Below, one piece after another: positions 10,859-44,675 of a DNA stretch of 50,006 bases. A model generated the notes under the pieces. It saw only the letters and a list, made by a program, of their open reading frames with translations. It had not been told where the DNA came from and searched no databases. Position numbers and translations under genes: made by a program. This DNA comes from an uncultured Candidatus Saccharibacteria bacterium. Its GTDB lineage: Bacteria > Patescibacteriota > Minisyncoccia > Phycocordibacterales > UBA9973. Location: assembly GCA_964454285.1 (NCBI GenBank), contig CAYVSW010000001.1:1-50006 (forward strand), given 5' to 3'. Every line of letters begins with the position of its first letter. The stretch's first letter is position 1.

Positions 10859-10872
10859 GGTACGGTAATTAT

Positions 10873-10946
10873 TGGGGTGTCGTCTAATGGTAGGACAACG
10901 GTTTCTGGTACCGTTTATTGAGGTTCGAGTCCTTGCACCCCAGCCA
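10873..10946 (+). tRNA. tRNA-Gln (CUG), copy 1, CCA encoded
   Basis: Acceptor TGGGGTG/CACCCCA, anticodon stem ACGGT/ACCGT with loop TTCTGGT, T loop TTCGAGT, 3' GCCA. Confidence 0.9.
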
Positions 10947-11168: not shown

Positions 11169-14100
11169 ATGCCTAAGAAAGCAGTTACTTTTTTAAAATC
11201 ATTTGCTAGTGTACTCACAATTTTCAGTCTTTTATTAACTCCTGTAAGTCTTGCGTTTGCGCAAGAAGTACCAAAAATTGAAGTTATTTCTTCTGAAGAA
11301 CTTCAAACAGATATATCAACCCCTATATTTGATACAGGAAATACAGTTGATATAACAGCAGAAACACTGACTGATGAAATAAAAACTCTTTCAGATCCAA
11401 ATAAATATGACAATGATTATTTAGATAAAGCATATCTTGATCCTAATAGTCCCTTTTATGATCCAGAACATAAAGAACCCGAGGATATTACCCAAAGTAA
11501 TGACGACACAACAAAAGATTCTGATAAACAAATAGCTTCAAGAAGTGCCACTGTTAGTCAGAATACTTTAATTTTAAACAGCAATACACAACGCGACACT
11601 ATTCGCCCAGAAATTGATCAAACTACTGGTGCGCTTGTATATAACTATCCTATAGAGACACCTGACGGTATTAATGGTTTAAACCCAAAATTAAGACTCA
11701 TTTACAATTCTCAGAATACAAAAAATGATTCTGTATATGGATATGGATGGTCAAGTAATATTCCTTATATTGAACGAATAAATAAGCATGGTACAGATCA
11801 GCTTTATACAGGAACTTATGACGATTATGTATCGTCAACTTTTGGTGAGCTTGTAAAAAACACCAGTACTCAGTATGTTCCAAAGTCAGCATCAGATATT
11901 GTTAACTTTTCTTTTAATAGTAATGTTTGGACATATACTGATAAACAAGGAACTGTTTATACTTATGGTGGGACATCGGCTTCTCGCCAAGATGATCCAG
12001 GAAACTCATCACACATTTCTAAGTGGATGTTGAGTTCAATAACTGACTCAGATGGGAATAGTATTACCTATACCTATTTGAAGGATCAGGGTCAGATATA
12101 TCCACAAATAATTAATTATGGAATCTATGAACTTGGTTTTAATCTCCAAGCACGTACTGATGTTACTGATAGTTATGCAAAAGGATTTTTAGTAAATACA
12201 AGATTTGTTCTTGGTGGAATTTCTTTGCGTAAGGTAACAAGTCCAACTTCTGCACCAACTACACAAGCGAACATGCTAGTTGTTGGAGGAGGCGGTGGTG
12301 GAGGAGCTGGAGGATCTAATAGAGGGCATTATGGAGGAGGGGGTGCAGGTGGATATAAAGCGTTTACTAATCAAGTGATTGTTCCTGCAACAGCATATCC
12401 AATTGTAATTGGCGATGGTGGTAATGGAAATTATAATGGACAGGGATCAAATGGAGGTAATACAACATTTAATAATATTACTGCAACAGGCGGTGGTGGT
12501 GGAGCGACTTATAATTCAAATGGTAGTAATGGTGGATCTGGCGGCGGCGGAGGTTCAGGTATTGGAGGAAACGCAAATCTGTATGAAGGTAATGATGGTG
12601 GAGCAGGTGCTACATATGCAGGTGGTGGCGGCGGAGGTAGTGGTTCTACGGGTAGTAGTGGTAGTGGTTCTGGTGGAACAGGTGGTACTGGTACGCTAAA
12701 TTCAATAAATGGATCTTCTGTTTATTACGCAGCAGGTGGCGGCGGCGGAGCACGAACTGGCGGCGGTGGAACGGGAGGTACTGGCGGTGGTGGAAATGGT
12801 GGATCTACTGGCCCCGGAGGATCTGCTACAGGGTATGGATCAGGTGGAGGTGGTGCTGGTTGGTATAATTATTCTGGTGGAAATGGTAGTTCTGGAATTG
12901 TGATTATTTCATATAAGACAGATGGTAGTGATGGAATTGATTCTTCATTATCTACAGGTGGAACAAAAACTACTTCTGGTTCTTATACTATTCATACATT
13001 CACAAGTAATGGCACATTAAATCTTATCCCAATTGCTCCAAGTGGATCAACCCTTCTTAAAAATTATGCAATTACATATACAACAGGACATAATGGTGTA
13101 CGAGCAGTACTTTCTTCAATTACTCCAAGTGCATATGATATAAATAATACCCTTACTACATTACCTTCGACTTCATTTACATATAACAAAGCGTCTTCAG
13201 GTGTTGCAACATATAGTTCAAGTCCTTCAATTTCTGGAATGTTCCCGGGAACTATAAATAACGGAGTTGTTCTTGGTGATGTAAATGGAGATGCCTATAC
13301 CGATATTATCAAATCATATGATTACTATGGGTATAGTAATGTAGGAAATTTTACTGATCACGCAGTTTATACGTTCAACCCAGTAACAGATACCTATAGT
13401 ACAAGTTCTTATACTATACCTACTGATATAATTAATTTTATACAAAATGCAGGTTCAAAATATGATGGCGGAACTCGAGTAGTTGATCTCGATGGTAATA
13501 TGGCTCCAGACCTTGTCAGAACTCCATATTACAATCCAACCAATAGTACTGCTTCCGCTGAACAGCATAATGGAACGGGATGGACTCATTTAACAAGTGG
13601 TTCTCCTTCGTATTATCCACCATATGCATCAAACCCGTTTTATACAGTATTCTCTGGTGATTTCAATGGCGATGGATTAACTGATTACATGCAGGATGTA
13701 CAAGCATGGCCGGCCACAACACCAACTACAAGTCTGTCGGTTAACAACGGTTCTTCCTTTACTACAAGTGGATCTACGTTCACAGGAACACATACATTTA
13801 ATACAGGAGATGATAGATGGTTAATGTTTGATCTTAATGGAGACGGCTTGGATGATTTAATAAAAGCTGATACTACAATACCGTGTAGCGGAACTACAAC
13901 ATATGATCAGCAAGTATATATAAACAACGGAACAACATGGGTGCGTGATTATTCTTACCAACTTCCGCAGTACTTTACAATTTACAATATCGGTTGTTAT
14001 TCGTCGTCTCGATTACCAATAGAAATTGGTGACTTCAATGGTGATGGTCTAACTGATATTATGGATATCAACGCTCAAAGTCTCTATATCAATCAAGGTA

Positions 14101-17100
14101 AGAGTTTTAGTGTTATTGGAAACCCAGGAGTAGGATTTTATAACTCTATGGCCGGCGCGTCAGCTGCTTGTACTAATTGCTCAAACCCATATCTAATTTA
14201 CGATATTAATGCGGATGGTTCACCAGATATTATCAATAATACTGGAACTTGGATGTGGGATAACACCATAACAACACCGACTGATTTAATGTCAGCTATT
14301 ACTCTTCCAGCAGGAGGTTTAATGGCTGTGACATATCAATCAAGCCCTAAATATGAAGATGGTAGTGGAAACTCATTAAACCCAACCAATCCAGTATTTT
14401 TGCAGACAGTAAAGAGTATTGCGACAACCGATCCTGTTACAAGTACAACTACTACAACAAATTACGAATATGCAGGCGGATCATATTATTACAATACGCC
14501 ATTTGATAGAAAATTTGCTGGCTTTGAAAAAGTTACAGAAATACGTCCTGATAGTACAAAGGTTGTTAATTACCATCTCCAAGGAAATGGTACAAACAGT
14601 TCATATTATGAGTACTCAGATAATGTTGGAAAGATCGGGTATGTCTATAGAACAGATGTGCTTGATACTAGTAATGCATTAGTTTCTCGTACAACAACCA
14701 AATACGATTCAGCTAATCCTGTGACAGGCGCATACTTTGTATACCCAACACAAACAGTCAGTGAAAATAGTGGGGTCAATACTGCGAAAACATACAGCTA
14801 CAACATCACAACAGGCACACTCACAAGCGCCGTCGATTATGGAATTGTCACTGTTACCGATCCACTCACATTTACTGACACAGGCACAGACAAAAAAACA
14901 ACCAACTATACCTATGCAACCAATGGAACTATCTATAAAGTTTCAAACCAGACAACACTTGATCAATCAAGCGCAAAGGTAAATGAGACTAATCTATACT
15001 ACGACAATCAAACGCTTGGTACTGTTATAAAAGGAAATAATACTAAAACAGAGCAATGGAAGGTTGGTACTACGTATGTAAACACTCAAAAGTCATACAG
15101 TACATATGGTAATGTCCTTACTGCAACAGACGAGCGAGGAAAAGTAACTGCTTACGCATATGATAGTTATAACCTCTATCCTATAACCGTTACCGACCCA
15201 TTAACTCGAACAACTCAGTACGCCTATGACTACAACACAGGAAAGCCAACACAGATAACTGATCAAAATGGTTATATCTACCAAACATCATATGATGGTT
15301 TTGGACGAGTACTTGAGCAAAAAGTTCCTGACCTTGCGACTCCATCTACTCTCGTAACAAAGACAACATACAGCTACACTAATACCCCAAACAATGTTTC
15401 AACCTACAAGACTGATTATCTTGATGGATCAACTACAATTGATAGCTATCAGTACTTTGATAGTCTCGGAAGACTAATTCAAGATCGTAGTGAAGCCGAA
15501 GTTTCTGGTACCTTTAATGTTAAGGATGTTACTTACAACAATGTTGGACTACTACAAAGTGAATCAATACGATACACAGGAAGTGGATCTGCTCGTACAG
15601 CCCCAACAACAAATACAACACTCTATAACACCTATACCTATGATCAGCTCAATCGAATACTGACAAGTGTAAATGCTCTCGGTACAACGAGTTATGTCTA
15701 TACAGGACTCAAAACTGCGATTACTGATGCAAATGGAAAAGTGAAGAATTACTACAACGATGCCTATGGCAATTTGGTAAAGGTAGAAGAAATCAATGCT
15801 GGTTCAACATACACCACAACATATACATGGAATCTCAATAATAAACTTACCAACATCACCGATGCACTCGCTAATGTTCGAAACTTCACTTATGACGGTC
15901 TTGGACGAAGACTCACTGCACAAGATCTTCATGCCTCAGCTGATACAACATTTGGTACTTGGACATATACGTATGATGATGCAGGAAATCTCACCCAGAC
16001 GCTTGATCCAAAGAGTCAAACGGTTAACTACACCTACGACGACCTCAATCGAGTGCTTACTGAAGACTACACAGGGCAAGCCGGTATTGAAGTTACCTAC
16101 ACCTACGATGTTGGAACGGGTAATCTTGGAAAGCTCACGAGTGTTGTAAATCCTGCAAGTACGAGAGCGTACATCTATAACTCAAACGGTGGTTTGAAAC
16201 AAGAAACAGATACACTCAATTCGGTAAATTACGTAACAACATACGATTACGATCGACAAGGTAACCAAGTTACTATTACCAATCCAGATAACTCACAAGT
16301 AAAGTACACCTACAATACTGCTGGACTGCTTGAACAAGTACAAAGAAAAGAATCAACTGATGGATCGTTCATCAACGTCATTACAAATTTTGACTATAAC
16401 CCTGATGGAAAGATTGTCACAACAACAAATGCGAACAGCACAACTACAACAAATACCTATGATGCGACCAAGCTATATCGATTAACTCACAAAGTCACTA
16501 CAGGTCCAGGTGCAGGTGGTACTCCAACAACAGTATCATTCTTCCCACAAGCAGGAGACGGTATGGTCACTTCAAATGCGTCAGCAACATGGGCAACCAT
16601 ACATGATGGCACTACAGGATCTGCTGCTGCCGCTACAGCGACAACATTTAATGTTGACTCAGGTAAATCATCTTCAACAAACTACAAGATTGAGCGTGGG
16701 TTCCTTGCATTCGATACTTCTTCACTTCCAGACAATGCAGTGATTAGTAGTGCAAAACTAAAACTTATCCCTAACTCAAAATTAAATAATGATAACGATG
16801 GAGATGATTGGATAACGGTAACTCAAGGTACCCAAGCAAGCCCTACAACACTCGGAACTGCTGATTACAACAAAGCAGGTCTAGCAACACTTCCTGTAGA
16901 AGGCATCTACAATACAGAGCGAAAAGATATCACTAACATAACTACAGGATTGTATCTTGCATTCAATTTGAACCCAACAGGTAAAACATGGATCTCTACG
17001 ACAGGGTCAACGTTACTTGGTCTTCGTGAAGGACACGATGCTATTAACAGTGCATTTACCGGTACTTCTGGTCAGTATGATCAAGTGATATTTAGATCAG

Positions 17101-18689
17101 GAGAATATACTGGCACCACAAGTGACCCAGTACTTGAAGTTACTTACTACACCACCACTCCTGCTCCTACAACAATCCAAGATCTTACCTATACCTATGA
17201 CAACGTCGGCAATATCACTCAAATAGTTGACGCGTCAGGTACCGATACTGCAAAGACTATTGCATACAGCTATGATGATCTCTACAGACTACTCTCTGCT
17301 ACCATCACAGGAGCTGTAAATGGGGATAACAGTACCAAGACATATATCTACAACGCGATTGGTAACATGCTTACTTCTGACGCAGGTACCTATACCTATG
17401 CAGGTACGGGTTATGCGAACCCACACGCTGTCACAGGGCTCGCTGGGTCAACCTATACCTACGACAATAGTGGAAACCTCACAGGAGACGGTACATGGAC
17501 ATATACCTGGGATTACAACAACCAGCTTCTCCAGAGCTCAAAGAGTGGAGTCACAAGCTCATATACCTACGATGCTAAAGGGCAGAGAGTTAAACAAGTC
17601 TCTCCAACATTTGGTACTGTCTATTATCCAACTCTTTCCTATAGTACAGATGGCACCACACCAACGAAACAAATAATGGTAGGAGACATATCTATAGGAA
17701 CAGTGAAAGGTACTGGTGCAAGTGCTGTTATGTACTATAACCATGCAGATCAATTGCAAAGTACAAACATCGTCACAAACCAATCTGGTCAAATGGTTGA
17801 GCTCATGGATTATCAACCGTATGGAGCTATGAGAATAGATTGGCAGTACAATAACAACTTTGATCAGTCTAAAAAATACATCAACAGAGAATACGATAGA
17901 GACAGCCAGCTTCTGTATCTTCAAGCGAGGTATATGAATCCAGGTATTGCGAAGTTCTTGAGTCAGGATCCAACACATTTGTCTATAGGAAATCCGAGCG
18001 CTGTTCAATCTTTGACTGGTAAGGATATGAAGATATATCTTTCTGATCCACAACAATTCAATTCTTATGCATATGCTCGAAACAATCCTATAGTTAATAG
18101 TGACCCAACGGGCAACGCAACATATATATGGAATAATGGTGCCGGAATGTCAGGAATTGATACTTGGGATACGAATACTTACTATCAATCTAGTGACCGA
18201 GCATTACTTCAAAAAAATGCTGTTGAAATGAGTTCAGCGGGTAATTACGCAAACCTCGGTGCATTTTATGATCGTGTACGCAATGGTGCACAGTGGGATT
18301 ATAAGAATCAGGATCGAGCCTATTATTTCTATGGAAGTGATCTTGTTGATAAAGAAACATTTGGAAATAGAAATTATGGGTACACTGGTACAGCAGCGGG
18401 TTTTGGGAAGACATTACTAAAAAGTGCTGCGGGTTATGCCCAAGTACGATCAGGTAATGCTCAATTAAAAGATGTAAGAACATTTTTTGACGATCCAAAG
18501 GATACGGCTAATATCCAGATTGGAATTTTGTCCTACAATAATGGCAACAGAGTAACTCCTGCGAGTGGGTTACAGATAGGTAAGCAGACTACAGTAAATA
18601 GTAAGGTTCTAAATTCGGTTTATCGACAGTTTCAAAGTATACAAAAAAAGATTAGTAACCTTGCTAAGAAATTAGGAAAATCAAATTAA
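11169..18689 (+). CDS. Giant secreted RHS/YD-repeat polymorphic toxin, Tc-toxin B/C fusion-like. Order: signal peptide, SpvB-like N-domain, Gly-rich insert, FG-GAP/VCBS repeats, RHS shell with an inserted domain, Rhs core, C-terminal toxin tip.
   Basis: Signal peptide MPKKAVTFLKSFASVLTIFSLLLTPVSLAFA/QE. SpvB-like motif TGALVYNYPIETPDGINGLNPKLRLIYNSQ...GYGWS. Six D-x-[ND]-x-D-G-x-x-D repeats (GDVNGDAYTDII ... YDINADGSPDII). Dozens of YD repeats (YxYDxxGxL). Core YLQARYMNPGIAKFLSQDP...NSYAYARNNPIVNSDPTGN. ATG 11169 is preferred to GTG 11127. Confidence 0.9.
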   Translation: MPKKAVTFLKSFASVLTIFSLLLTPVSLAFAQEVPKIEVISSEELQTDISTPIFDTGNTVDITAETLTDEIKTLSDPNKYDNDYLDKAYLDPNSPFYDPEHKEPEDITQSNDDTTKDSDKQIASRSATVSQNTLILNSNTQRDTIRPEIDQTTGALVYNYPIETPDGINGLNPKLRLIYNSQNTKNDSVYGYGWSSNIPYIERINKHGTDQLYTGTYDDYVSSTFGELVKNTSTQYVPKSASDIVNFSFNSNVWTYTDKQGTVYTYGGTSASRQDDPGNSSHISKWMLSSITDSDGNSITYTYLKDQGQIYPQIINYGIYELGFNLQARTDVTDSYAKGFLVNTRFVLGGISLRKVTSPTSAPTTQANMLVVGGGGGGGAGGSNRGHYGGGGAGGYKAFTNQVIVPATAYPIVIGDGGNGNYNGQGSNGGNTTFNNITATGGGGGATYNSNGSNGGSGGGGGSGIGGNANLYEGNDGGAGATYAGGGGGGSGSTGSSGSGSGGTGGTGTLNSINGSSVYYAAGGGGGARTGGGGTGGTGGGGNGGSTGPGGSATGYGSGGGGAGWYNYSGGNGSSGIVIISYKTDGSDGIDSSLSTGGTKTTSGSYTIHTFTSNGTLNLIPIAPSGSTLLKNYAITYTTGHNGVRAVLSSITPSAYDINNTLTTLPSTSFTYNKASSGVATYSSSPSISGMFPGTINNGVVLGDVNGDAYTDIIKSYDYYGYSNVGNFTDHAVYTFNPVTDTYSTSSYTIPTDIINFIQNAGSKYDGGTRVVDLDGNMAPDLVRTPYYNPTNSTASAEQHNGTGWTHLTSGSPSYYPPYASNPFYTVFSGDFNGDGLTDYMQDVQAWPATTPTTSLSVNNGSSFTTSGSTFTGTHTFNTGDDRWLMFDLNGDGLDDLIKADTTIPCSGTTTYDQQVYINNGTTWVRDYSYQLPQYFTIYNIGCYSSSRLPIEIGDFNGDGLTDIMDINAQSLYINQGKSFSVIGNPGVGFYNSMAGASAACTNCSNPYLIYDINADGSPDIINNTGTWMWDNTITTPTDLMSAITLPAGGLMAVTYQSSPKYEDGSGNSLNPTNPVFLQTVKSIATTDPVTSTTTTTNYEYAGGSYYYNTPFDRKFAGFEKVTEIRPDSTKVVNYHLQGNGTNSSYYEYSDNVGKIGYVYRTDVLDTSNALVSRTTTKYDSANPVTGAYFVYPTQTVSENSGVNTAKTYSYNITTGTLTSAVDYGIVTVTDPLTFTDTGTDKKTTNYTYATNGTIYKVSNQTTLDQSSAKVNETNLYYDNQTLGTVIKGNNTKTEQWKVGTTYVNTQKSYSTYGNVLTATDERGKVTAYAYDSYNLYPITVTDPLTRTTQYAYDYNTGKPTQITDQNGYIYQTSYDGFGRVLEQKVPDLATPSTLVTKTTYSYTNTPNNVSTYKTDYLDGSTTIDSYQYFDSLGRLIQDRSEAEVSGTFNVKDVTYNNVGLLQSESIRYTGSGSARTAPTTNTTLYNTYTYDQLNRILTSVNALGTTSYVYTGLKTAITDANGKVKNYYNDAYGNLVKVEEINAGSTYTTTYTWNLNNKLTNITDALANVRNFTYDGLGRRLTAQDLHASADTTFGTWTYTYDDAGNLTQTLDPKSQTVNYTYDDLNRVLTEDYTGQAGIEVTYTYDVGTGNLGKLTSVVNPASTRAYIYNSNGGLKQETDTLNSVNYVTTYDYDRQGNQVTITNPDNSQVKYTYNTAGLLEQVQRKESTDGSFINVITNFDYNPDGKIVTTTNANSTTTTNTYDATKLYRLTHKVTTGPGAGGTPTTVSFFPQAGDGMVTSNASATWATIHDGTTGSAAAATATTFNVDSGKSSSTNYKIERGFLAFDTSSLPDNAVISSAKLKLIPNSKLNNDNDGDDWITVTQGTQASPTTLGTADYNKAGLATLPVEGIYNTERKDITNITTGLYLAFNLNPTGKTWISTTGSTLLGLREGHDAINSAFTGTSGQYDQVIFRSGEYTGTTSDPVLEVTYYTTTPAPTTIQDLTYTYDNVGNITQIVDASGTDTAKTIAYSYDDLYRLLSATITGAVNGDNSTKTYIYNAIGNMLTSDAGTYTYAGTGYANPHAVTGLAGSTYTYDNSGNLTGDGTWTYTWDYNNQLLQSSKSGVTSSYTYDAKGQRVKQVSPTFGTVYYPTLSYSTDGTTPTKQIMVGDISIGTVKGTGASAVMYYNHADQLQSTNIVTNQSGQMVELMDYQPYGAMRIDWQYNNNFDQSKKYINREYDRDSQLLYLQARYMNPGIAKFLSQDPTHLSIGNPSAVQSLTGKDMKIYLSDPQQFNSYAYARNNPIVNSDPTGNATYIWNNGAGMSGIDTWDTNTYYQSSDRALLQKNAVEMSSAGNYANLGAFYDRVRNGAQWDYKNQDRAYYFYGSDLVDKETFGNRNYGYTGTAAGFGKTLLKSAAGYAQVRSGNAQLKDVRTFFDDPKDTANIQIGILSYNNGNRVTPASGLQIGKQTTVNSKVLNSVYRQFQSIQKKISNLAKKLGKSN
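17515..17572 (+). repeat. 58-nt segment of the main rhs gene repeated at the 5' junction of the downstream orphan
   Basis: Matches 19320-19377 with 2 mismatches; both encode NNQLLQSSKSGVTSSYTYD. Confidence 0.9.
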
Positions 18690-18695
18690 ATCAAA

Positions 18696-19259
18696 ATGAA
18701 AAAAATATCTAAAAAAATAATATTAATAAGTGGGTTAGTGTTAATAATTGCCATTATTGTTGGGCGTGTTTACTTTAATGGTGGTAATGCAAAAGATTTA
18801 AGAATTGTTAATTCGTTGGAAAAAAATGTTCTTCCTTACATTCAACAAAATAAAGTATCTTTTTACTTTAATATGGATTGGTGTAAAGGTCTTCAGTATG
18901 ACTCTCGTTCAGTAGTAGAGATTTCTAGTTCAAGTAATAATTCGTCGTGCTTAAACAATGCTTCAACATTTTCTGATTCTGACCGTTCAATTTTTAATGA
19001 AATTGGTAAAAAATTGAGCTTTGTTTCTGTAGGAAAATTTAGAGAAATTGATACGGAATATCCAATAAGTTATAGGGGTGAACAAGTAAATATCCCTCAT
19101 GAATCAATAGGTTTAGCTTTCCATACGGATTGTTCTTTCTGTAGAATCCGCTATGTTTACTGGCCACAGTATACCGAGCTACCGCCCAGTATTGATGGAG
19201 AAATTAAATACATTCCTATCAATGAAAACTGGTATAGAGTTGAGCAAGATTGGAATTAA
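18696..19259 (+). CDS. Putative cognate immunity protein (N-terminal membrane anchor)
   Basis: Starts 7 nt after the rhs stop. TM segment KIILISGLVLIIAIIVG. Call rests on position; no family recognised. Confidence 0.55.
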   Translation: MKKISKKIILISGLVLIIAIIVGRVYFNGGNAKDLRIVNSLEKNVLPYIQQNKVSFYFNMDWCKGLQYDSRSVVEISSSSNNSSCLNNASTFSDSDRSIFNEIGKKLSFVSVGKFREIDTEYPISYRGEQVNIPHESIGLAFHTDCSFCRIRYVYWPQYTELPPSIDGEIKYIPINENWYRVEQDWN

Positions 19260-19270
19260 CTCCACTATAA

Positions 19271-19924
19271 GTCAACATTCTTTTAAGAAAAAAGTGTTAC
19301 AATCACACTAGTTCTTTAAACAACAACCAGCTCCTCCAGAGCTCAAAGAGTGGAGTCACAAGTTCATATACCTACGACGATCTCAACCGACTTCTGACTG
19401 CAACAATCACCTCAGTACCAACAGGACAGACTACCTATACACAAACCTATGTATATAATGCAATTGGAAATATAACCTCTGGTCCAGTTGGAACATATGT
19501 TTATAACGGTTCAAGTGGTTCAAACTGGGCTAACCCTCATGCAGCGACATCTATAAATGGTGTTACAAATACCTACGACAAGGATGGAAACAATACAGGA
19601 GACGGAACACTCACAAATACATGGAACTATAAAGACCAACTTACAAGAACTGTAAAAGGTGCAACAACAATTGACTATCTATATGACTATACTGGAGACC
19701 GTTCATCATATACTGACGGCACTACAACTACTGATTATGCCAACAAGTACTATAACTATGATGGTGCAAAGAAAGTTAAACAAATATTTGCTGGCAATCA
19801 ACTAGTTGGAACAATAGAGACAGTAGGAGCTACAGTATCTCCATACTATGTTCATACAGATACTGTTCTCGGTTCAAATGTAATATCAGATGGAACTGGT
19901 GCAAAGAATCAACTCCTTGACTAT
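19271..19924 (+). pseudogene. Start-less in-frame 5' part of the orphan Rhs cassette (YD repeats)
   Basis: Same frame as 19925-20767 and open back to TAA 19268-19270. No ATG, GTG or TTG codon in 218 codons. Encodes YD repeats paralogous to main-gene residues around nt 17275-17600. Confidence 0.75.
19320..19377 (+). repeat. Orphan-side copy of the 58-nt rhs homology
   Basis: See 17515-17572. Confidence 0.9.
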
Positions 19925-20767
19925 ATGCCGTTTGGAAAAGTGAGAATTAATCAGCAAGCAACCAGTTTCAACGAGAAAAATCAATTTATAGGACAGGAGT
20001 ATGACGAAGACACACAATTATCCTATCTTAACGCTCGTTACTATAATGGGGCTAGGGGTCAGTTTATAAGCCAAGATCCAGTATTCTGGGAGATTGGACA
20101 GTCTAAAGAAGGAATGAGTGCTCTATCTGATCCTCAATCAATGAATAGTTATTCCTATGCAGGAAATAATCCGATTAAAAATTCGGATCCTGACGGAAGA
20201 TGGTATAAGGAAGTTCTAACTGGTCAGCAATCCTGGTCTAGTTTCTCGGGAGAAGTAGGTCAAGCAACCCAATACATGGGTAGTGGGTGGCAGACAGCAA
20301 TGGATCATCCTGTTGCAGCAGGGGCAGCAGTTGGAGTTGGATCAGGATTAGCGGCATATGGAGCCGCCGCAGGACTTACTGCTCTTAGTACTCAATATCT
20401 TGGTGGAGCAGGTACGGCATGTGTAGCACTATGCAATCAAAATGGACAAAAACTAGTTGAGCAAGGAATATCAAATCTACAACAGTTACCAAGGGTGGTC
20501 ACTGCAACAGAAAAAATGGTAGAGCGGGGTCCAAATAAGGATATAGTTGGAATTAATAATTTCCTACAACAAGCACAAAAGGGTACAGCTTACTTGGATA
20601 ACAAAACAGGTAATATAAATATCTTTTCTAAGATAGGGGATAGTGCTAGGTACACAAGAACTACTCTTAATCCAGAGGGGAATAAAATTATTTCAGCTGG
20701 TATTAATCAGGCAAGAAATGTTATTAATGGTATTTCAAACGGACGCTTTACTAAGATTACTAAATAA
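19925..20767 (+). CDS. RHS repeat-associated core plus an alternative C-terminal toxin tip (orphan module; ORF as callable from its first ATG)
   Basis: Core motifs QEYDEDTQLSYLNARYYNGARGQFISQDP...NSYSYAGNNPIKNSDPDGR, followed by a 189-aa tip unrelated to the main tip and containing a Gly/Ala-rich hydrophobic stretch VAAGAAVGVGSGLAAYGAAAGLTAL. Confidence 0.8.
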   Translation: MPFGKVRINQQATSFNEKNQFIGQEYDEDTQLSYLNARYYNGARGQFISQDPVFWEIGQSKEGMSALSDPQSMNSYSYAGNNPIKNSDPDGRWYKEVLTGQQSWSSFSGEVGQATQYMGSGWQTAMDHPVAAGAAVGVGSGLAAYGAAAGLTALSTQYLGGAGTACVALCNQNGQKLVEQGISNLQQLPRVVTATEKMVERGPNKDIVGINNFLQQAQKGTAYLDNKTGNINIFSKIGDSARYTRTTLNPEGNKIISAGINQARNVINGISNGRFTKITK

Positions 20768-20784
20768 TATAAAATTAAAACAAC

Positions 20785-21078
20785 ATGAAAAACTTTATTG
20801 ACCTCATAGAATCATTCATAGAAGGAAAAATTGACTTCAAAGAATTTGATAAAAATTGGCAAAAATTATATATAGGCTCATCAGATAAAGGTGAACTCTA
20901 TGAGGCTTTGTCAGAATCAGAGAAGGATTTTCTTGATGAGATACATGATAAAGAGGATTTAGCTACCAAAGATGAAAAGGAATTACAGGATTTGAAAAAA
21001 TACAACTTTATTTCTGTAAAGGAATTTAAAGAGTGGCTAAAAGATTATAAACAAAAGAATATTGAAATCTGGAAATAG
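20785..21078 (+). CDS. Putative immunity protein for the orphan toxin (small acidic helical protein)
   Basis: Lies 17 nt after the orphan stop. The N-terminal pattern LIESFIEGKIDFKEFDKNWQKLY recalls colicin-type (ImmD-like) immunity proteins, from memory. Confidence 0.55.
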   Translation: MKNFIDLIESFIEGKIDFKEFDKNWQKLYIGSSDKGELYEALSESEKDFLDEIHDKEDLATKDEKELQDLKKYNFISVKEFKEWLKDYKQKNIEIWK

Positions 21079-21354: not shown

Positions 21355-21600
21355 ATGGATACAGGATATTGGCAACCATTATCAGGTTTAGTCATAGGTT
21401 TATTATTAGTAATCCTATTCTGTCTTCTTTATACGCGCTGGAGAAAAAAGCCTGTTCAATGGATTACAAAGCATATATTTCGAAGCCAGCTCATGAGCGA
21501 AAAGTCTGCAACTGGTCTTTATAATGTAATGATAAGTTTTATACCAGTGATAGGTGTAATATGGATTTTTTCAGCACTTCTGTATTTGAGGGTTCTGTAA
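21355..21600 (+). CDS. Hypothetical small membrane protein (2 TM)
   Basis: 81-aa ORF with two hydrophobic helices. Confidence 0.4.
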   Translation: MDTGYWQPLSGLVIGLLLVILFCLLYTRWRKKPVQWITKHIFRSQLMSEKSATGLYNVMISFIPVIGVIWIFSALLYLRVL

Positions 21601-21803
21601 AAAGTGAAAAAATAAGCACTAATGATAGTTGGGTAGTAAATACAAGTATAAGTGATGTATATGATTTCAATCCTGTAAATCCTCAAACATACAAGGGTGC
21701 AATTACAAAATTACCCGCTGGACAGGCACATAAAGATCAAGGCAGTGGTATTTTAAGTAATTACAATGTAAATATTCAATTTAGTGATAAAATTAACAAA
21801 TAG
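21561..21803 (+). CDS. Hypothetical 80-aa protein, possibly the remnant tip of a third toxin module
   Basis: Short ORF (frame opens only at 21525), followed 2 nt later by a membrane-anchored ORF in the same arrangement as the two toxin/immunity pairs upstream. Confidence 0.3.
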   Translation: MDFFSTSVFEGSVKSEKISTNDSWVVNTSISDVYDFNPVNPQTYKGAITKLPAGQAHKDQGSGILSNYNVNIQFSDKINK

Positions 21804-21805
21804 TT

Positions 21806-22321
21806 ATGAAAAATAAAAAGATACCATATGTATTAATAATACCTTTACTGATAATAGCAATTTTTGCTTTTAGTTATTATTATTTTATCAGAATTCCAAA
21901 TAAAAAAATTGCAGAAAGATGTATTCAATATGATCGTGAATGGGCGAATTTGGAAGATTGCTATGGTTTAATTTCACTTCGTTATGGTTGGGATATTGAT
22001 TATTATTACTTATTGGATCACATTCATGATTACGAAATTGCGAGAATCTATAACCTTGATCAATACATTTACGAAAACAATAAAATTTTCGTGATCAATC
22101 GCAAGACCATAGAAAACAGCTCATCTAACGGAATTAAGACTACCTATTATCAGGAACTGTTTCAGAACGGTAAGTTGTCAGATAATCCCTATAGTGAAAT
22201 TTCAGACATACCAACTTTCCTGGTTGTAGATACTGTTTCTGGTGAAGTACAAGCATATAAAAATATCACTGATGTTCCGAGTGATCAACAGAGCTATTTT
22301 ACCAAAATCAATAACCAGTAG
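21806..22321 (+). CDS. Hypothetical membrane-anchored protein (candidate orphan immunity protein)
   Basis: N-terminal TM segment IPYVLIIPLLIIAIFAFSYYYFI, then a Tyr/Asp-rich soluble domain. Confidence 0.5.
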   Translation: MKNKKIPYVLIIPLLIIAIFAFSYYYFIRIPNKKIAERCIQYDREWANLEDCYGLISLRYGWDIDYYYLLDHIHDYEIARIYNLDQYIYENNKIFVINRKTIENSSSNGIKTTYYQELFQNGKLSDNPYSEISDIPTFLVVDTVSGEVQAYKNITDVPSDQQSYFTKINNQ

Positions 22322-22874: not shown

Positions 22875-23201
22875 ATGAAACAAATTCTAGTACTACATGG
22901 AGGAGATAGTTTTGGGACAGAGGAGGAATATATTTCTTTTTTGAAGAATTTTGAGATAGAAAATCTCGATTATTTCAAAAGTAAACGATGGAAAGAAAAC
23001 CTACAGGCAGATCTGGGGCCAGACTTTGAAGTTATTGCGTCGCGGATGCCAAATGCATTTAATGCGCGCTATGAGGAGTGGAAGATCTGGTTTGAAAAGA
23101 TCCTCCCTTTGATGGACGATAGATGTGTACTCCTCGGGCATTCGCTCGGAGGGACTTTTCTTGCAAAAACAATAGAAAAACGAATTTCTTATCAAAAATA
23201 A
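22875..23201 (+). pseudogene. Truncated alpha/beta serine hydrolase (YdeN/RBBP9-like); only the N-terminal half is present
   Basis: Nucleophile elbow LLGHSLGG is present, but the ORF stops 17 codons later, so the Asp/His half is missing. A full-length family member lies at 27024-27578. Confidence 0.6.
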
Positions 23202-26700: not shown

Positions 26701-26738
26701 ATCTTAAAACTAGCTATCTTTGAGCTAGCTCAAGTTTG

Positions 26739-26809
26739 CTGGGGTGCAAGGACTCGAACCTCAATAGACGGTACCAGAAACCGTAGTCCTACCATTAGAC
26801 GACACCCCA
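26739..26809 (-). tRNA. tRNA-Gln (CUG), copy 2, inverted relative to copy 1
   Basis: The reverse complement matches 10873-10943 at 69 of 71 positions. The two differences are at tRNA positions 26 and 44. CCA is not encoded. Confidence 0.9.
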
Positions 26810-27023: not shown

Positions 27024-27578
27024 ATGAAAAATACAATCCTTATACACGGAGCACCTTATGAAGACGAATTTAGAAATCTTGCGACACCTTCTCCTTCAAA
27101 TACAAATTGGTTCCCTTGGTTGCAAAAACAGCTTGCTTTGCACGATGAAATATCTGTAGCTCCAGAAATGCCTCGCCCGTATGACGGTGTATATAGTGAA
27201 TGGGAAGCCGTAATAAAACAGTATAGTGTTACCGCAGAAACAACATTAGTAGGGCACTCTTGTGGTGGTGGTTTTCTTCTTCGGTATCTATCAGAAAACC
27301 CCGATATTATTCCAGGTAAGGTTGTGCTTGTTGCGCCATGGCTCGATCCCGAACCTCATGAGCTAACTACCCCTTTCTTTGATTTTAAAATTGATGAAGA
27401 GTTGAATAGTAGAACAGATCTTCACTTTTTTATGTCTAGTGATGATTTTGATGGATGCTTAAAATCTTTTGAATTAATTAAAAAGATTTTACCAAATGCG
27501 CACTATCATCTTTTTGATAACAAAGGACACTTTACAGACAAAGAGTTTCCGGAAATAATAAAATTATTTTTTGTTTAG
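27024..27578 (+). CDS. Alpha/beta serine hydrolase (YdeN/RBBP9-like)
   Basis: Nucleophile elbow GHSCGG, then later SSDD and GHF positioned to supply the Asp and His. Length 184 aa. Confidence 0.75.
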   Translation: MKNTILIHGAPYEDEFRNLATPSPSNTNWFPWLQKQLALHDEISVAPEMPRPYDGVYSEWEAVIKQYSVTAETTLVGHSCGGGFLLRYLSENPDIIPGKVVLVAPWLDPEPHELTTPFFDFKIDEELNSRTDLHFFMSSDDFDGCLKSFELIKKILPNAHYHLFDNKGHFTDKEFPEIIKLFFV

Positions 27579-41698: not shown

Positions 41699-41920
41699 TT
41701 AGCCGCGGAGTGCGAGGACAATACCAATACTTGCACCAACAAAAACAAGCGCTACGATAATCGTAGTGAAAAATAGGAATTTTTCTGCGCCACGGCGGGT
41801 CTGCATAAATGAGCCTTCGCTCGATGAGCCTCCCATATCACCTTGTGTTCTCTGGAGTAATACCAAAGCAACGAGGGCAATTGCGCTTATTATTTGGATG
41901 ATAGATAGTGTGTGTGCCAT
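41699..41920 (-). CDS. secG: Preprotein translocase subunit SecG
   Basis: 73 aa with two TM helices separated by a Gly/Ser-rich loop (LLQRTQGDMGGSSSEGSF). Confidence 0.75.
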   Translation of the reverse strand: MAHTLSIIQIISAIALVALVLLQRTQGDMGGSSSEGSFMQTRRGAEKFLFFTTIIVALVFVGASIGIVLALRG

Positions 41921-41966
41921 AACGAAACGTATCTATTCTAGCATAAAGCCTAAAAAACTGCAATTA

Positions 41967-41975
41967 TGCTATACT
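41967..41975 (+). promoter_or_regulatory. Extended -10 element TGCTATACT
   Basis: Ends 6 nt before ATG 41982, so the predicted transcript is leaderless. Confidence 0.45.
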
Positions 41976-41981
41976 GCGTAT

Positions 41982-44675
41982 ATGATTAGTCTCAACGAGA
42001 TACGAAATAGAGCAGTAGCTTTTTCTGCAGAGTGGGACAGAGAATACAGTGAAGATGCTGAAGCAAAAAGCTTTTGGGACGGTTTTTTTGATGTATTTGG
42101 GGTTTCTCGCAGGCGTGTAGCTTCGTTTGAATACCAAGTAAAAAAGCAAGATGGTGGGCAAGGGTTCATAGATGTACTTTGGAAAGGGGTAATGCTAGCC
42201 GAGCACAAAAGTCGTGGACGCAGTCTCGACAAAGCGTTTACCCAAGCAAAAGATTATTTTCCTGGGCTCACCGATGCAGAGCTTCCTCGCTATGTGGTAG
42301 TTTCTGATTTTGAAAAAATAAGAATTACAGACCTCGAATCAAACAAAGAGACAGAATTTGTACTCAAAGATTTGCACAACTACATACACCTTTTTGATTT
42401 TATTTCTGGATATACTTCACATAGTGATTATGCAAAAGAAGAGGAGGTTAGTATCAAAGGCGCAAAGCTCATGGCGGACTTTCACAATGAAATAGCAAAG
42501 ACTGGCTACACTGGACATGAGCTAGAAGTATTTTTGATACGCATACTTTTTTGTCTTTTTGCAGACGATACAGGAATTTTTGAAAAAGGACTTTTTAGAA
42601 ATTATATAGAAAACAGAATCAGTAAAGATGGGGGAGACCTCGGTATTCATTTGGGGCAGATTTTTTATATTTTAAATACACCACAAGAAAAAAGACAGAC
42701 CACTACAGACGAGCAACTCATGCAATTCCCCTATATAAACGGTGGTATTTTTGCAGAAAATCTCTCTCCTGTGTCGCTCGATGCTACAGCATATCTCAAG
42801 CTCTTGCGTTGCTGCGAATTCGACTGGTCGGGGATTTCTGCATCTATTTTTGGATCGCTTTTCCAAGGGGTAATGAATGAAAAGCAGCGTCGTGAGCTCG
42901 GCGCGCACTACACTTCAGAAATAAATATACTAAAAGTAATCCAGCCTCTTTTTCTCGATGAGTTGTATATTGAGTTTGATGCTCTAAAATACGACTCAAA
43001 AAAACTCACAGCTTTTCATGAAAAGCTTACAATGCTCACATTCCTCGACCCGGCGTGTGGCTGTGGCAATTTCCTCGTCACTGCATATAGAGAGCTGCGC
43101 ACGCTCGAGCTAGAGGTGCTCAAAATACTGCGCAAAGACAACAAGCGCGTACTCTTTGGGGCCGAAGATATTTCCAAAATACAAGTGAATCAATTCTACG
43201 GTATCGAAATAGAAGAGTTCCCAGCACTTGTCGCACGCACTGCGATGTATCTCGTGGATCACCAGATGAACATGGCGCTTTCTACAGAATTCGGGCAAGC
43301 CTATGCGCGTATCCCACTTCGCGAGCCTGCGACTATCGTACACGCAGATGCACTCACGACAGACTGGGAGAGCGTAATACCCAAAAACAAGCTCTCGTAC
43401 ATTCTCGGCAACCCGCCATTTTCAGGAGGTCAAATAATGACCAAATCTCAAAAAGAAAATTTCTTGAAAGTTTTTGACGAATTAAAAGCTGTGGGTAATC
43501 TAGATTTTGTCACTGCATGGTACGAAAAAGCAGCAAAATATATGGTGGGTACAAAAATCAAAACAGCATTTGTATCTACAAACAGTATTTGCCAGGGCGA
43601 GCAAGTAGGGATACTCTGGAAGCACCTCAAAGAAACATACGGCGTAGTAATACACTTCGCGCATCAGACTTTCAAATGGAACAACGACGCTCCAGGAGTC
43701 GCCGCTGTGTACTGTGTTATTGTCGGCTTCGCAGATTTTGACACACCTAAAAAATACCTTTTTGAATACGAGACGATAAAAAGCGAGCCAAAAGAAAAAG
43801 AAGTAGAGCATATAAATGCATACTTGGTAGCAGGTGAGGATATTTTTATTGAAAAGAGAACAAAGCCAATTTGCGAAGTTTTAAATATTATTAAAGGAAA
43901 TTATTATGCAAAAAGTGAAGGATTAATTATAGAGGAAGAAGATTTAGATTATTTGGTAACAAATGAATCAAATGCAAAAAAATGGATAAAGCTTTTGATT
44001 GGTGCCGATGAATTTATAAATAACAAAAAACGATATTGTCTTTGGCTGGTTGATTGCCCGCCAGAAGAATTACGCAAAATGCCTTTAGTTATGGAGCGCA
44101 TCAATCGCGTCCGAGAAGATAGACTAAAAAGCACTGACAAAGGAATGCAAAACCTTGCGCCTACGCGTTTTCGTGAGACAAACAATCCTGAGACATGTCT
44201 TGTGATTCCAGTTGTTTCTTCTGAAAAGAGAAAATATATTCCAATGGGGTTTATTGATAAAAATACCATTTCAACAAATGGCAATTTAATAATGCCCGAC
44301 GCAGATTTGTTCCATTTTGGAATACTGCAATCTTTGCAGCATATGACTTGGGTTTCGTATACTTGTGGAAGATTGAAAAGTGATTATCGATATTCAAAAG
44401 ATATTGTGTACAACAATTTCCCTTGGCCAGAGAGTGTAAGTGATGAGCAAAAGAAAAAAGTAGAGGATTGCGCGCAAAAAGTACTCGATGCTCGAGCGCA
44501 ATTTCCAAATAGCTCGCTCGCAGATCTCTATGATCCGAACACTATGCCACCAGAGCTCACAAAAGCCCACAATGAGCTCGATAGAGCAGTAGATGCCTGC
44601 TATGGCGCGCGTTTTGCAAATAAAGAGGATCGCATCGAGCATCTTTTTGATTTGTATAAGAAATATACGAAATAG
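41982..44675 (+). CDS. MmeI-family type IIL/IIG restriction-modification enzyme (nuclease, N6-adenine methyltransferase and specificity domain fused)
   Basis: N-terminal nuclease region EAKSFWDGFFDVFGVSRRRVASFEYQVKK...GFIDVLWKGVMLAEHKSRG, MTase motif I LDPACGCGNFL, motif IV NPPF (ILGNPPFSGG). Length about 897 aa. The track's 5' extension (41766) runs antisense through secG and is rejected. Confidence 0.88.
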   Translation: MISLNEIRNRAVAFSAEWDREYSEDAEAKSFWDGFFDVFGVSRRRVASFEYQVKKQDGGQGFIDVLWKGVMLAEHKSRGRSLDKAFTQAKDYFPGLTDAELPRYVVVSDFEKIRITDLESNKETEFVLKDLHNYIHLFDFISGYTSHSDYAKEEEVSIKGAKLMADFHNEIAKTGYTGHELEVFLIRILFCLFADDTGIFEKGLFRNYIENRISKDGGDLGIHLGQIFYILNTPQEKRQTTTDEQLMQFPYINGGIFAENLSPVSLDATAYLKLLRCCEFDWSGISASIFGSLFQGVMNEKQRRELGAHYTSEINILKVIQPLFLDELYIEFDALKYDSKKLTAFHEKLTMLTFLDPACGCGNFLVTAYRELRTLELEVLKILRKDNKRVLFGAEDISKIQVNQFYGIEIEEFPALVARTAMYLVDHQMNMALSTEFGQAYARIPLREPATIVHADALTTDWESVIPKNKLSYILGNPPFSGGQIMTKSQKENFLKVFDELKAVGNLDFVTAWYEKAAKYMVGTKIKTAFVSTNSICQGEQVGILWKHLKETYGVVIHFAHQTFKWNNDAPGVAAVYCVIVGFADFDTPKKYLFEYETIKSEPKEKEVEHINAYLVAGEDIFIEKRTKPICEVLNIIKGNYYAKSEGLIIEEEDLDYLVTNESNAKKWIKLLIGADEFINNKKRYCLWLVDCPPEELRKMPLVMERINRVREDRLKSTDKGMQNLAPTRFRETNNPETCLVIPVVSSEKRKYIPMGFIDKNTISTNGNLIMPDADLFHFGILQSLQHMTWVSYTCGRLKSDYRYSKDIVYNNFPWPESVSDEQKKKVEDCAQKVLDARAQFPNSSLADLYDPNTMPPELTKAHNELDRAVDACYGARFANKEDRIEHLFDLYKKYTK

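Follow-up and report, generated by a model that had tools for sequence, protein, structure and literature searches.

A predicted Sec-exported Rhs cocoon toxin of the TcB/TcC-fusion class with a candidate immunity gene in a likely CPR genome

How would a toxin cocoon of the TcB/TcC type be targeted and opened where neither a TcA translocator nor a type VI secretion system (T6SS) accompanies it, and could modules plugged into the cocoon set its target specificity? These questions are raised by a 7.5-kb gene for a protein of 2,506 amino acids (aa) in a 50,006-nt stretch of DNA (contig CAYVSW010000001.1, positions 1 to 50,006; the whole stretch is referred to as the window). The likely source is a member of the candidate phyla radiation (CPR, Patescibacteria), a very large and mostly uncultured group of bacteria that live on other microbes and whose means of harm and competition are largely unknown. 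The evidence makes it quite probable that the gene is part of an Rhs polymorphic toxin–immunity locus of the TcB/TcC-fusion ('TcdB/TcaC') class, the product of which would be a Sec-exported, WapA-like antibacterial cocoon. The locus would then show that CPR carry a large, mobile, and rapidly diversifying Tc/Rhs-cocoon toxin–immunity system at a coding cost of 7.5 kb.

The gene is a single unbroken frame from its ATG to its stop codon (Table 1) and occupies 15.0% of the window, in agreement with a preliminary description of the locus, which had proposed a secreted RHS protein of about 2,506 aa that takes 15% of the 50 kb. An identical protein (P0001) is present in NCBI-derived data on several contigs, and over 30 homologues of full length, taken from independent assemblies, align collinearly with it from end to end. 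No sign of a frameshift or chimera was observed, and the identical P0001 and the collinear homologues make either very unlikely. The position of the start codon is backed by relatives that begin alike (MSKKT..F.K). The Sec signal peptide that had been noted earlier was also found by rule-based reading of the N-terminus (MPKK, a hydrophobic core, and a predicted cleavage site between AFA and QE), and the ending '..VFAQE' is common to relatives across the family. A scan for promoters and terminators performed no better than on shuffled sequence.

Domain models are arranged along the protein in the order expected for a TcB/TcC-type fusion. The SpvB/TcB-type N-domain that had been proposed was recovered with PF03534 (E-value of 1.9e-19), and it is split by an inserted Gly_rich_2 module, which matches PF21722 over aa 363–583 with an E-value of 7.5e-19 and a score of 69.1 bits (the gathering cut-off is 24.3) and covers profile positions 13–226 of 226. 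The FG-GAP/VCBS propeller of the preliminary description is likewise present: FG-GAP_3 matches with an E-value of 5e-11, integrin alpha-V and TcB propellers were matched in the family profile search, and six DxDxDG-like motifs start at aa 703, 772, 831, 888, 955, and 1012 (nt 13275–14232). In the following segment, which had been described as TcdB-mid-like, TcdB_toxin_midN scored 39.2 bits against a cut-off of 24.8 when this tile was scanned alone, and the family profile aligns across TcdB2 region 286–792. TcdB_toxin_midC (which we take to be PF12255) had no match in the protein even at E-values of up to 10. In the HMMER/InterPro check that had been proposed for the locus, the models for SpvB, FG-GAP, midN, RHS, and TIGR03696 were matched, and midC was not.

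The C-terminal half contains RHS repeats (PF05593, E-value of 1.3e-25, nine stretches) and YD repeats (TIGR01643, E-value of 2.3e-27). Their presence had been anticipated, but the earlier estimate for the YD repeats (more than 1,000 aa) is too long because the approximately 230 aa between residues 1776 and 2005 are an inserted non-YD domain. The Rhs-associated core that closes the shell scored 46.3 bits with TIGR03696 (cut-off of 32.5) and is followed by a polymorphic tip, as had been described. Residues D2243 and D2267 of the core align with the 'ERDA...SADP' residues of TccC2 and with RhsP and RhsA, and both are invariant in the family alignment. In TcC and Rhs proteins, the corresponding pair of aspartates severs the tip. 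The core carries a PxxxxDPxG motif, and conservation within the family ends after DPxG. Autocleavage is predicted at or just after the NNPIVNSDPTGN motif.

Structural comparisons place the protein among the Tc and Rhs cocoons. When a family profile built from 16 members was searched against the PDB, the best match was TcdB2-TccC3 (6h6g, E-value of 9e-49); YenB and TcdB1 came next for the N-terminal half, and the C-terminal half matched T6SS Rhs cages and teneurin-like proteins; a single-sequence search with the whole protein, in contrast, gave weak matches only. The AlphaFold model of aa 1121–2320 is composed entirely of β-hairpins, with predicted local distance difference test (pLDDT) values of 85–93 in the YD parts. 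In Foldseek this shell model superposes on TcdB2-TccC3 (4o9x/6sup) with a query-normalised template modelling (TM) score of 0.63–0.65, and also on Tse15 (8uxt, E-value of 5e-39), RhsA, and Tre23-Rhs, the E-values for Rhs and Tc cages ranging from 1e-35 to 1e-39. The comparison with TcB–TcC cocoon structures that had been suggested for the locus, together with the domain models and the profile match to TcdB2-TccC3, bears out the reading of the protein as a B/C-fusion cocoon. Given the profile and fold matches and the aligned, invariant dyad, encapsulation and cleavage of the tip are well-founded predictions.

Two modules are plugged into this scaffold. Of the top 48 hits, 30 contain a Gly_rich_2 module homologous to that of the main protein (46–66% identity), which occurs at no fewer than four positions, i.e. 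near the N-terminus, in the mid region, at a shell site (the commonest), and late in the shell. Within the SpvB region it occurs in P0001–P0003 only, and other members have 19 aa at site 1. Its retention by most members regardless of position would fit a displayed binding function. The second module, at site 2 in the YD shell, is well conserved and was modelled alone with high confidence (AlphaFold pLDDT of 91, predicted TM score of 0.87). In Foldseek it resembles a chondroitin-sulfate carbohydrate-binding module (CBM; 8wab, E-value of 5.6e-6) and the alginate-binding CBM96 (7vbo, E-value of 1e-4), with TM scores of 0.49–0.66, and its match to NCBIfam DNRLRE (NF033679; E-value of 3.4e-8) reaches 33.7 bits, just under the cut-off of 34. 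CBM96 is the characterised branch of the DNRLRE domain (PMC9971899). A single-sequence search of the PDB with this insert yielded only a non-significant hint of a neuropilin discoidin domain. Two copies of the DNRLRE-like module are present in P0038, and it is also found as stand-alone proteins of approximately 360 aa without Pfam annotation (P0126–P0143). Both Gly_rich_2 and DNRLRE domains are frequent in large surface proteins of CPR and archaea. We infer that the two modules are located outside the shell and bind glycan.

The tip belongs to the Ntox44 family (PF15607; E-value of 1.7e-15, 57.7 bits against a gathering cut-off of 24). The motifs DYKN, FGNxxxG (FGNRNYG), and DDPKD are invariant in six sequences; a word-index search for homologues of the tip found five, and a single-sequence search of the PDB with the tip found no match. 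The published Ntox44 motifs are DxK, GNxxxG, and DxxxD, and the parts of a 2012 survey that deal with this domain place it in antibacterial toxins of the T6SS, type VII secretion system (T7SS), and Sec routes (PMC3482391). An assignment of Ntox44 to the TelC/lipocone superfamily, which would agree with an immunity protein that faces outward, was considered and dropped, as the lipocone paper makes no mention of Ntox44.

The boundary between scaffold and tip is sharp. Identity to relatives drops from 80–96% to background past about aa 2200–2300, and P0002 and P0003, which are 75–78% identical to the main protein overall, have no counterpart of its tip and share nothing with it after DPxG. At the nucleotide level, homology to relatives extends from the upstream tRNA-Gln gene to positions 17956–17972 (codons 2262–2268, 'FLSQDP') and then ends. 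Downstream of their toxin genes the relatives have other small genes, one of which is Imm33-like. As judged from these alignments, the tip is polymorphic in the strict sense, and recombination within the part of the gene that encodes the core would swap it. Many tips of the family (P0008, P0011, P0014, P0015, P0022, P0024, P0027, and P0031) start after DPxG with 'G(R/K)W(Y/F)KE(V/F)LxGxQSW', a segment that the main tip does not have. In the tip encoded by the orphan cassette downstream of the main gene (ORF part at 19925–20767), the same segment is followed by a glycine-zipper-like hydrophobic stretch. The segment may represent a pre-toxin or membrane-entry module that these tips have in common.

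The open reading frame (ORF) that directly follows the toxin gene encodes the candidate cognate immunity protein of 187 aa. In a Saccharibacteria locus (L076), a tip homologue of approximately 80% identity is encoded by an orphan cassette downstream of the main Rhs gene rather than by that gene itself, and directly after this Ntox44 orphan cassette there is a copy of the 187-aa ORF with 70.6% identity. Two metagenomic loci (L081 and L082) contain an Ntox44 cassette with an ORF of the 187-aa type at 41–43% identity. The linkage between Ntox44 and the 187-aa family is therefore seen at four loci, and neutralization of the toxin by the 187-aa protein is predicted. The family comprises 78 representative clusters; a hydrophobic segment is present at the N-terminus in 59 of them, and some four cysteines are found repeatedly, which fits an outward-facing tethered protein. 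At L081:9001-10267 and L082:9001-10267, the Ntox44 cassette and the anchored partner gene are found without a full-length Rhs gene nearby, and the surroundings contain serine recombinase, ParB-methylase, and restriction genes; this suggests that the cassette is carried on a mobile element there.

The orphan cassette itself encodes the last approximately 280 residues of a shell, an Rhs core (TIGR03696, 65.6 bits), and a tip that matches the real tips of P0006, P0007, and P0018. Such orphans were observed in 16 of the 59 related loci with enough downstream sequence, and the arrangement would correspond to the classic picture of a displaced previous 3′ end. The small acidic ORF after the cassette has weak similarity to Colicin_immun (E-value of 0.006, under the cut-off). 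Both the neighbouring candidate immunity gene and the orphan cassette suggest a toxin used against bacteria and not one of the Tc type directed at eukaryotes. Farther downstream, an 80-aa ORF (21561–21803, + strand) precedes one of 171 aa (21806–22321, + strand) whose product has a membrane anchor at its N-terminus, a pair that looks like a toxin fragment and its immunity gene. The region at 21.1–22.3 kb was rejected as a third toxin/immunity remnant, as it has no similarity to tips of the family and the anchored 171-aa product shows no relationship to the 187-aa protein.

Relatives of the protein are widespread. Our scan of species-representative genomes identified at least 532 stretches that encode a member of the family, and the best 80 (L001–L080) were examined. 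These 80 are overwhelmingly from Patescibacteria, with many Saccharibacteria and a few non-CPR labels, and the groups represented include Paceibacteria, Doudna-, Ryan-, Kaiser-, Magasanik-, Uhr-, Adler-, Falkow-, and Lloydbacteria, Gracilibacteria, and Microgenomates. The sizes of the scaffold parts are conserved (propeller ∼340 aa, mid region ∼295 aa, shell ∼443 and 206 aa, core ∼90 aa, and tip ∼190 aa). The closest loci are mostly from Saccharibacteria or other Patescibacteria, and the housekeeping genes of the window match those loci best, in line with the CPR-like background that the preliminary description had suspected. For seven close members (L009, L021, L029, L034, L054, L060, and L072), the metagenome-assembled genomes (MAGs) that contain them were given the label 'uncultured Gammaproteobacteria' in third-party assemblies, and one of the seven lies on a contig of 876 kb; either these labels are mistaken or members of the family occur outside CPR as well. 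Near the Rhs genes of the family, hybrid histidine kinase/response regulators were noted at 14 loci, IS200 transposases at eight, and the type IV pilus genes PilM and PilB at six each, and no neighbour family other than the Rhs orphans is common to most loci.

The absence of a TcA-like translocator from the window, which the preliminary description had pointed out, was confirmed: the 50 kb contain no TcA-sized ORF and no member of a TcA, T6SS, or T7SS family, and the next-largest ORF encodes a 969-aa MmeI-type enzyme. Around the 80 related loci, the search reached out to approximately 7 kb and detected nothing TcA-like among the neighbours, of which only some of the large ones were scanned with Pfam. 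Upstream ORFs of 1,100–1,300 aa were considered as TcA-like candidates and rejected; a scan of seven of them revealed rpoC, surface proteins of the Ig/deacetylase type, or unknowns, which the loci do not have in common.

These observations can be combined into the following mechanism. The 2,506-aa protein would be exported by Sec, and its SpvB, propeller, mid, and YD-repeat parts would fold into a closed cocoon. The aspartyl protease of the Rhs core, with its D2243/D2267 dyad, would cut after DPxG, so that the Ntox44 tip of approximately 190 aa is freed yet kept in the shell. The Gly_rich_2 module and the glycan-binding-like sandwich, both in loops of the scaffold, may tether the cocoon to an envelope polysaccharide on either the producing or the target cell. 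When the cocoon meets a neighbouring bacterium, be it a sibling, a competitor, or a host, the tip would be released and poison this neighbour, and the producer would be protected by the 187-aa membrane-anchored protein. The immunity protein is predicted to face outward, so the tip may act on the outer membrane face or the wall, and no TcA-like translocator would then be needed. This is the weakest step of the mechanism because one paper calls Ntox44 a nuclease domain. New tips would enter by recombination in the core-coding sequence, and the old 3′ end would stay behind as a silent orphan with its own immunity ORF.

Several points weigh against this mechanism. Ntox44 has been described as a nuclease-type domain (bioRxiv 10.1101/2020.05.11.077669), and a nuclease must enter the cytoplasm, which is a poor fit with an outward-facing immunity protein. 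Where the 2012 survey lists Ntox44, it gives the domain as all-alpha and with no known immunity (Zhang et al. 2012, PMC3482391). The 187-aa ORF matched no known immunity family in Pfam or NCBIfam and no structure in the PDB. Across the family, approximately half of the ORFs adjacent to the toxin genes encode membrane proteins and approximately half look cytosolic, so that envelope-acting and cytoplasm-acting tips are probably both used, and the latter would have to cross a membrane. The DNRLRE-like insert has a pLDDT of approximately 25 in the shell model, as most alignment rows carry a different module at site 2, so its position outside the shell is an assumption. The search for TcA covered 50 kb of the genome, and a partner could be encoded elsewhere. 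The taxon is deduced from relatives. Lastly, expression, export, cleavage, and toxicity are predictions from the sequence and from models, as are the cell that the toxin is aimed at and the place where it would act.

The strongest alternative is that the protein is mainly a weapon or attachment device against the host of an episymbiont, in which the modules bind the host wall, the toxin frees nutrients by killing the host or making it permeable, and immunity only prevents self-harm. We regard this emphasis as unlikely. It would account for the concentration of the family in Patescibacteria, whose cultivated members are obligate epibionts, for the CBM-like module and the near-universal Gly-rich module in the cocoon, for the large outlay that the gene represents for a small genome, and for the membrane location predicted for half of the putative immunity proteins, which suggests envelope-directed tips. 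However, the fast swapping of tips and immunity genes between near-identical scaffolds and the orphan arrays are the classic signature of kin or competitor discrimination, which a fixed effector against a host would not be expected to leave, and no host is known for the source organism. The host-directed and competitor-directed readings are not mutually exclusive.

Another alternative is that the protein belongs, as the BC subunit, to a true Tc toxin of the ABC type, with a TcA pentamer encoded elsewhere in the genome that docks on the propeller and injects the tip into eukaryotes, e.g. protists or invertebrates. Its best profile and fold matches are indeed TcdB2-TccC3, YenB, and TcdB1, the SpvB, propeller, and TcdB_midN parts are all present, and only 50 kb of the genome were in view. 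The main protein and the cocoons of TcdB2-TccC3 (4O9X, 6H6G) and YenB-YenC2 (4IGL) are alike in the SpvB domain, propeller, TcdB-mid region, YD shell, and core dyad. They differ in that the main protein is one polypeptide with a Sec signal peptide, no TcA nearby, no detected midC, and two extra modules, and in that an antibacterial-type tip with a linked downstream gene and an orphan is found here, whereas the Tc toxins have an anti-eukaryote tip without immunity. To our knowledge, canonical TcB and TcC have no Sec signal peptide and leave the cell by lysis-type release. The lack of a TcA-sized or TcA-family ORF in the window and of a detected one around the 80 loci, where large neighbours were scanned in part, also argues against an ABC toxin, as do the conserved adjacent immunity candidate and the orphan cassettes, which are hallmarks of antibacterial polymorphic toxins, and the occurrence of Ntox44 in T6SS and T7SS antibacterial toxins as listed in the survey (PMC3482391). 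This explanation is very improbable, and functionally the protein would not be an ABC toxin, since no TcA partner was detected in the 50 kb or among the scanned neighbours of the related loci and a linked candidate immunity gene is present. There is next to no chance that the gene encodes a non-toxic surface or S-layer-like protein or is a decaying pseudogene or a chimera, for which the frequency of Gly_rich_2 and DNRLRE in CPR and archaeal surface proteins and a decayed serine recombinase next to the locus could be cited, since the 7.5-kb frame is intact, the identical protein and full-length collinear homologues come from several contigs and many independent assemblies, neither the catalytic dyad nor any of the three Ntox44 motifs varies, and the linked candidate immunity gene is conserved.

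The architecture has been known as a class since 2012: the 'TcdB/TcaC' class is defined by a signal peptide, SpvB, an integrin-like propeller, RHS, and a variable tip (Zhang, de Souza, Anantharaman, Iyer & Aravind 2012, Biol Direct 7:18; PMC3482391). This same architecture is found here, and the survey's account of the class also includes linked immunity genes and stand-alone cassettes (PMC3482391). The passages on the class name many phyla, CPR/Patescibacteria not being among them, and do not list Ntox44 for this route; they contain no modules inserted into the scaffold, whereas the main protein has the Gly_rich_2 and DNRLRE-like ones (PMC3482391).

WapA, a wall-associated Rhs toxin of Gram-positive bacteria (Bacillus subtilis and Streptococcus suis), is similar in its signal peptide, YD shell, Rhs core, and polymorphic tip, and it contains a DNRLRE domain, of which the main protein has a DNRLRE-like counterpart. 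It is accompanied by an immunity gene and, farther downstream, by 'Rhs orphans' that are not functional (PMC12704120), in line with the candidate immunity gene and the orphan cassette of the main locus. Some WapA tips are toxic only outside the cytoplasm, and how they are delivered past Sec is unknown (PMC12704120). For the WapA N-terminus, DNRLRE, LysM, and DUF6531 are listed, but no SpvB, propeller, or TcdB-mid (PMC12704120); in the main protein the DNRLRE-like module is inside the YD shell, LysM is absent, and DUF6531 was seen only below the cut-off (E-value of 0.017). No sortase gene was found in the window. By analogy, the biology of the locus would resemble that of Sec-exported WapA rather than that of insecticidal ABC toxins, and delivery without TcA or T6SS would pose the same question as for Sec-exported WapA of monoderm bacteria.

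T6SS Rhs effectors (RhsA 7Q97, Tse15 8UXT, Tre23-Rhs 7PQ5, and RhsP 8H8A) share the YD cage, the core dyad, and, as predicted for the main protein, tip encapsulation, and their profile and fold matches to the C-terminal half of the main protein are strong. The N-terminal half, however, is TcB-like, neither the protein nor its neighbours contain PAAR, VgrG, or prePAAR, and there are no T6SS genes. Within Saccharibacteria, a secreted RHS/YD toxin of similar size (2,487 aa) with a neighbouring immunity gene has been reported for 'T. rhizospherense' (Starr et al. 2018, PMC6031116); that report describes the toxin in one sentence, with PA14 and galactose-binding domains, and the comparison is by description only (PMC6031116). 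Among open-access papers and preprints, no paper was found that describes a CPR-wide family. The breadth of the family in CPR, the modules at varying sites of the scaffold, and the association of Ntox44 with an anchored candidate immunity protein appear to be new.

A broader proposal can be formulated for the family as a whole. We consider it possible, although with the odds rather against it, that Patescibacteria share a self-sufficient, TcA-independent cocoon weapon in which interchangeable external modules (Gly_rich_2 in most of the members examined, together with lectin-like ones of which the DNRLRE/CBM96-like module is an example) dock on the wall of a host or rival, the cocoon opens, and many tips act on the outer membrane face or the wall. 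That approximately half of the linked immunity proteins are membrane-anchored would follow if many tips act outside. If correct, such a docking cocoon would be among the main factors that decide how episymbiotic CPR kill hosts and how their strains compete, and nature would offer in it a Tc-type cocoon that opens without TcA. The combination of Ntox44 with an outward-facing immunity protein would provide a handle on Ntox44 activity, and Saccharibacteria are now genetically tractable (PMC10633639).

The surroundings of the gene bear signs of mobility. Nucleotide homology to the closest relative, L083, starts at position 10866, just before the upstream tRNA-Gln gene, and in L083 a tRNA-Gln gene is located 214 nt before the Rhs gene. 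The GC content is lower from approximately 9.7 to 31 kb, and the inverted pair of tRNA-Gln genes brackets the low-GC block that holds the Rhs locus; this pair could be an island boundary or the trace of a past inversion. The recombinase remnant downstream comprises the last approximately 60 codons of a large serine recombinase; its intact counterpart of 557 aa (L001:19008-20681) follows an Rhs gene and small/immunity ORFs in a Saccharibacteria MAG. A serine recombinase lies beside the Rhs gene in L083, L084, and L085 and recurs in 10 of the 80 loci. The recombinase remnant, the upstream tRNA-Gln gene (also found in L083), the low GC content, and the inverted tRNA-Gln copy together suggest that the locus is a decayed serine-recombinase-borne island next to tRNA-Gln.

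Table 1. Coordinates in the window of the toxin gene, its predicted parts, and associated features
Feature	Position (nt)	Strand	Basis
tRNA-Gln(CTG), just upstream of the main gene	10873..10946	+	ARAGORN, Rfam
Main gene, predicted 2,506-aa Sec-exported Rhs cocoon toxin, TcB/TcC-fusion type	11169..18689	+	ORF, domain models, profile and fold searches
Sec signal peptide, aa 1–31, ending in SLAFA before QE	11169..11261	+	Rule-based sequence reading (MPKK, hydrophobic core, AFA before QE)
Acidic low-complexity linker, aa 32–151	11262..11621	+	Sequence; no significant Pfam match; only P0002 and P0003 align
SpvB/TcB N-terminal domain, first part, aa ∼152–354	11622..12230	+	PF03534, E-value 1.9e-19; SpvB 6p0x in profile search
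Inserted Gly_rich_2 module, aa 355–632, splits SpvB region at 'site 1'	12231..13064	+	PF21722
Rest of SpvB-type region, aa 633–690	13065..13238	+	Family consensus 'KYxLxYTxGxNGxRSLLSSIT'
FG-GAP/integrin-like β-propeller, six DxDxDG-type repeats, aa ∼691–1040	13239..14288	+	FG-GAP_3, motifs, profile matches
TcdB-middle region, aa 1041–1330	14289..15158	+	TcdB_toxin_midN; best 6h6g stretch at profile positions 316–827
YD-repeat shell, first part, aa 1331–1775	15159..16493	+	RHS_repeat, YD_repeat_2x; all-β-hairpin model
Inserted DNRLRE/CBM96-like β-sandwich, 'site 2', aa 1776–2005	16494..17183	+	AlphaFold, Foldseek, NCBIfam DNRLRE
YD-repeat shell, second part, aa 2006–2214	17184..17810	+	Repeat models, AlphaFold model, profile alignment
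58-nt stretch, 97% identical to 19320–19377 at the orphan-cassette junction	17515..17572	+	Repeat search, blastn
Rhs-associated core, aa 2215–2315, dyad D2243/D2267, motif NNPIVNSDPTGN	17811..18113	+	TIGR03696, dyad alignment
Polymorphic toxin tip, aa 2316–2506; Ntox44 at aa 2366–2458, then basic amphipathic tail	18114..18686	+	PF15607
Candidate cognate immunity protein, 187 aa, N-terminal membrane anchor, Cys-containing predicted extracytoplasmic domain	18696..19259	+	7 nt past the toxin stop; linkage
Orphan Rhs cassette, 498 codons: shell end, Rhs core, and different tip; no start before ATG 19925	19271..20767	+	TIGR03696, tip match
Small acidic 97-aa ORF, candidate immunity to the orphan tip	20785..21078	+	18 nt past the orphan stop
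Large serine recombinase remnant, last ∼60 codons	21125..21307	-	93.5% nt identity to the end of L001:19008-20681
Second tRNA-Gln(CTG), inverted	26738-26809	-	89-nt arms, 94% complementary with the 10873–10946 copy

The rest of the window contains housekeeping genes and the MmeI-type enzyme. The latter (41766–44675, + strand, 969 aa) is a complete restriction-modification enzyme with all five MmeI domains. Two short ORFs on the + strand, at 22875–23201 and 27024–27578, start like α/β-hydrolases (…ILVLHGG… and …ILIHGAP…, respectively); the first looks truncated, as judged by its sequence alone, and the second has an Abhydrolase_1 match in Pfam.

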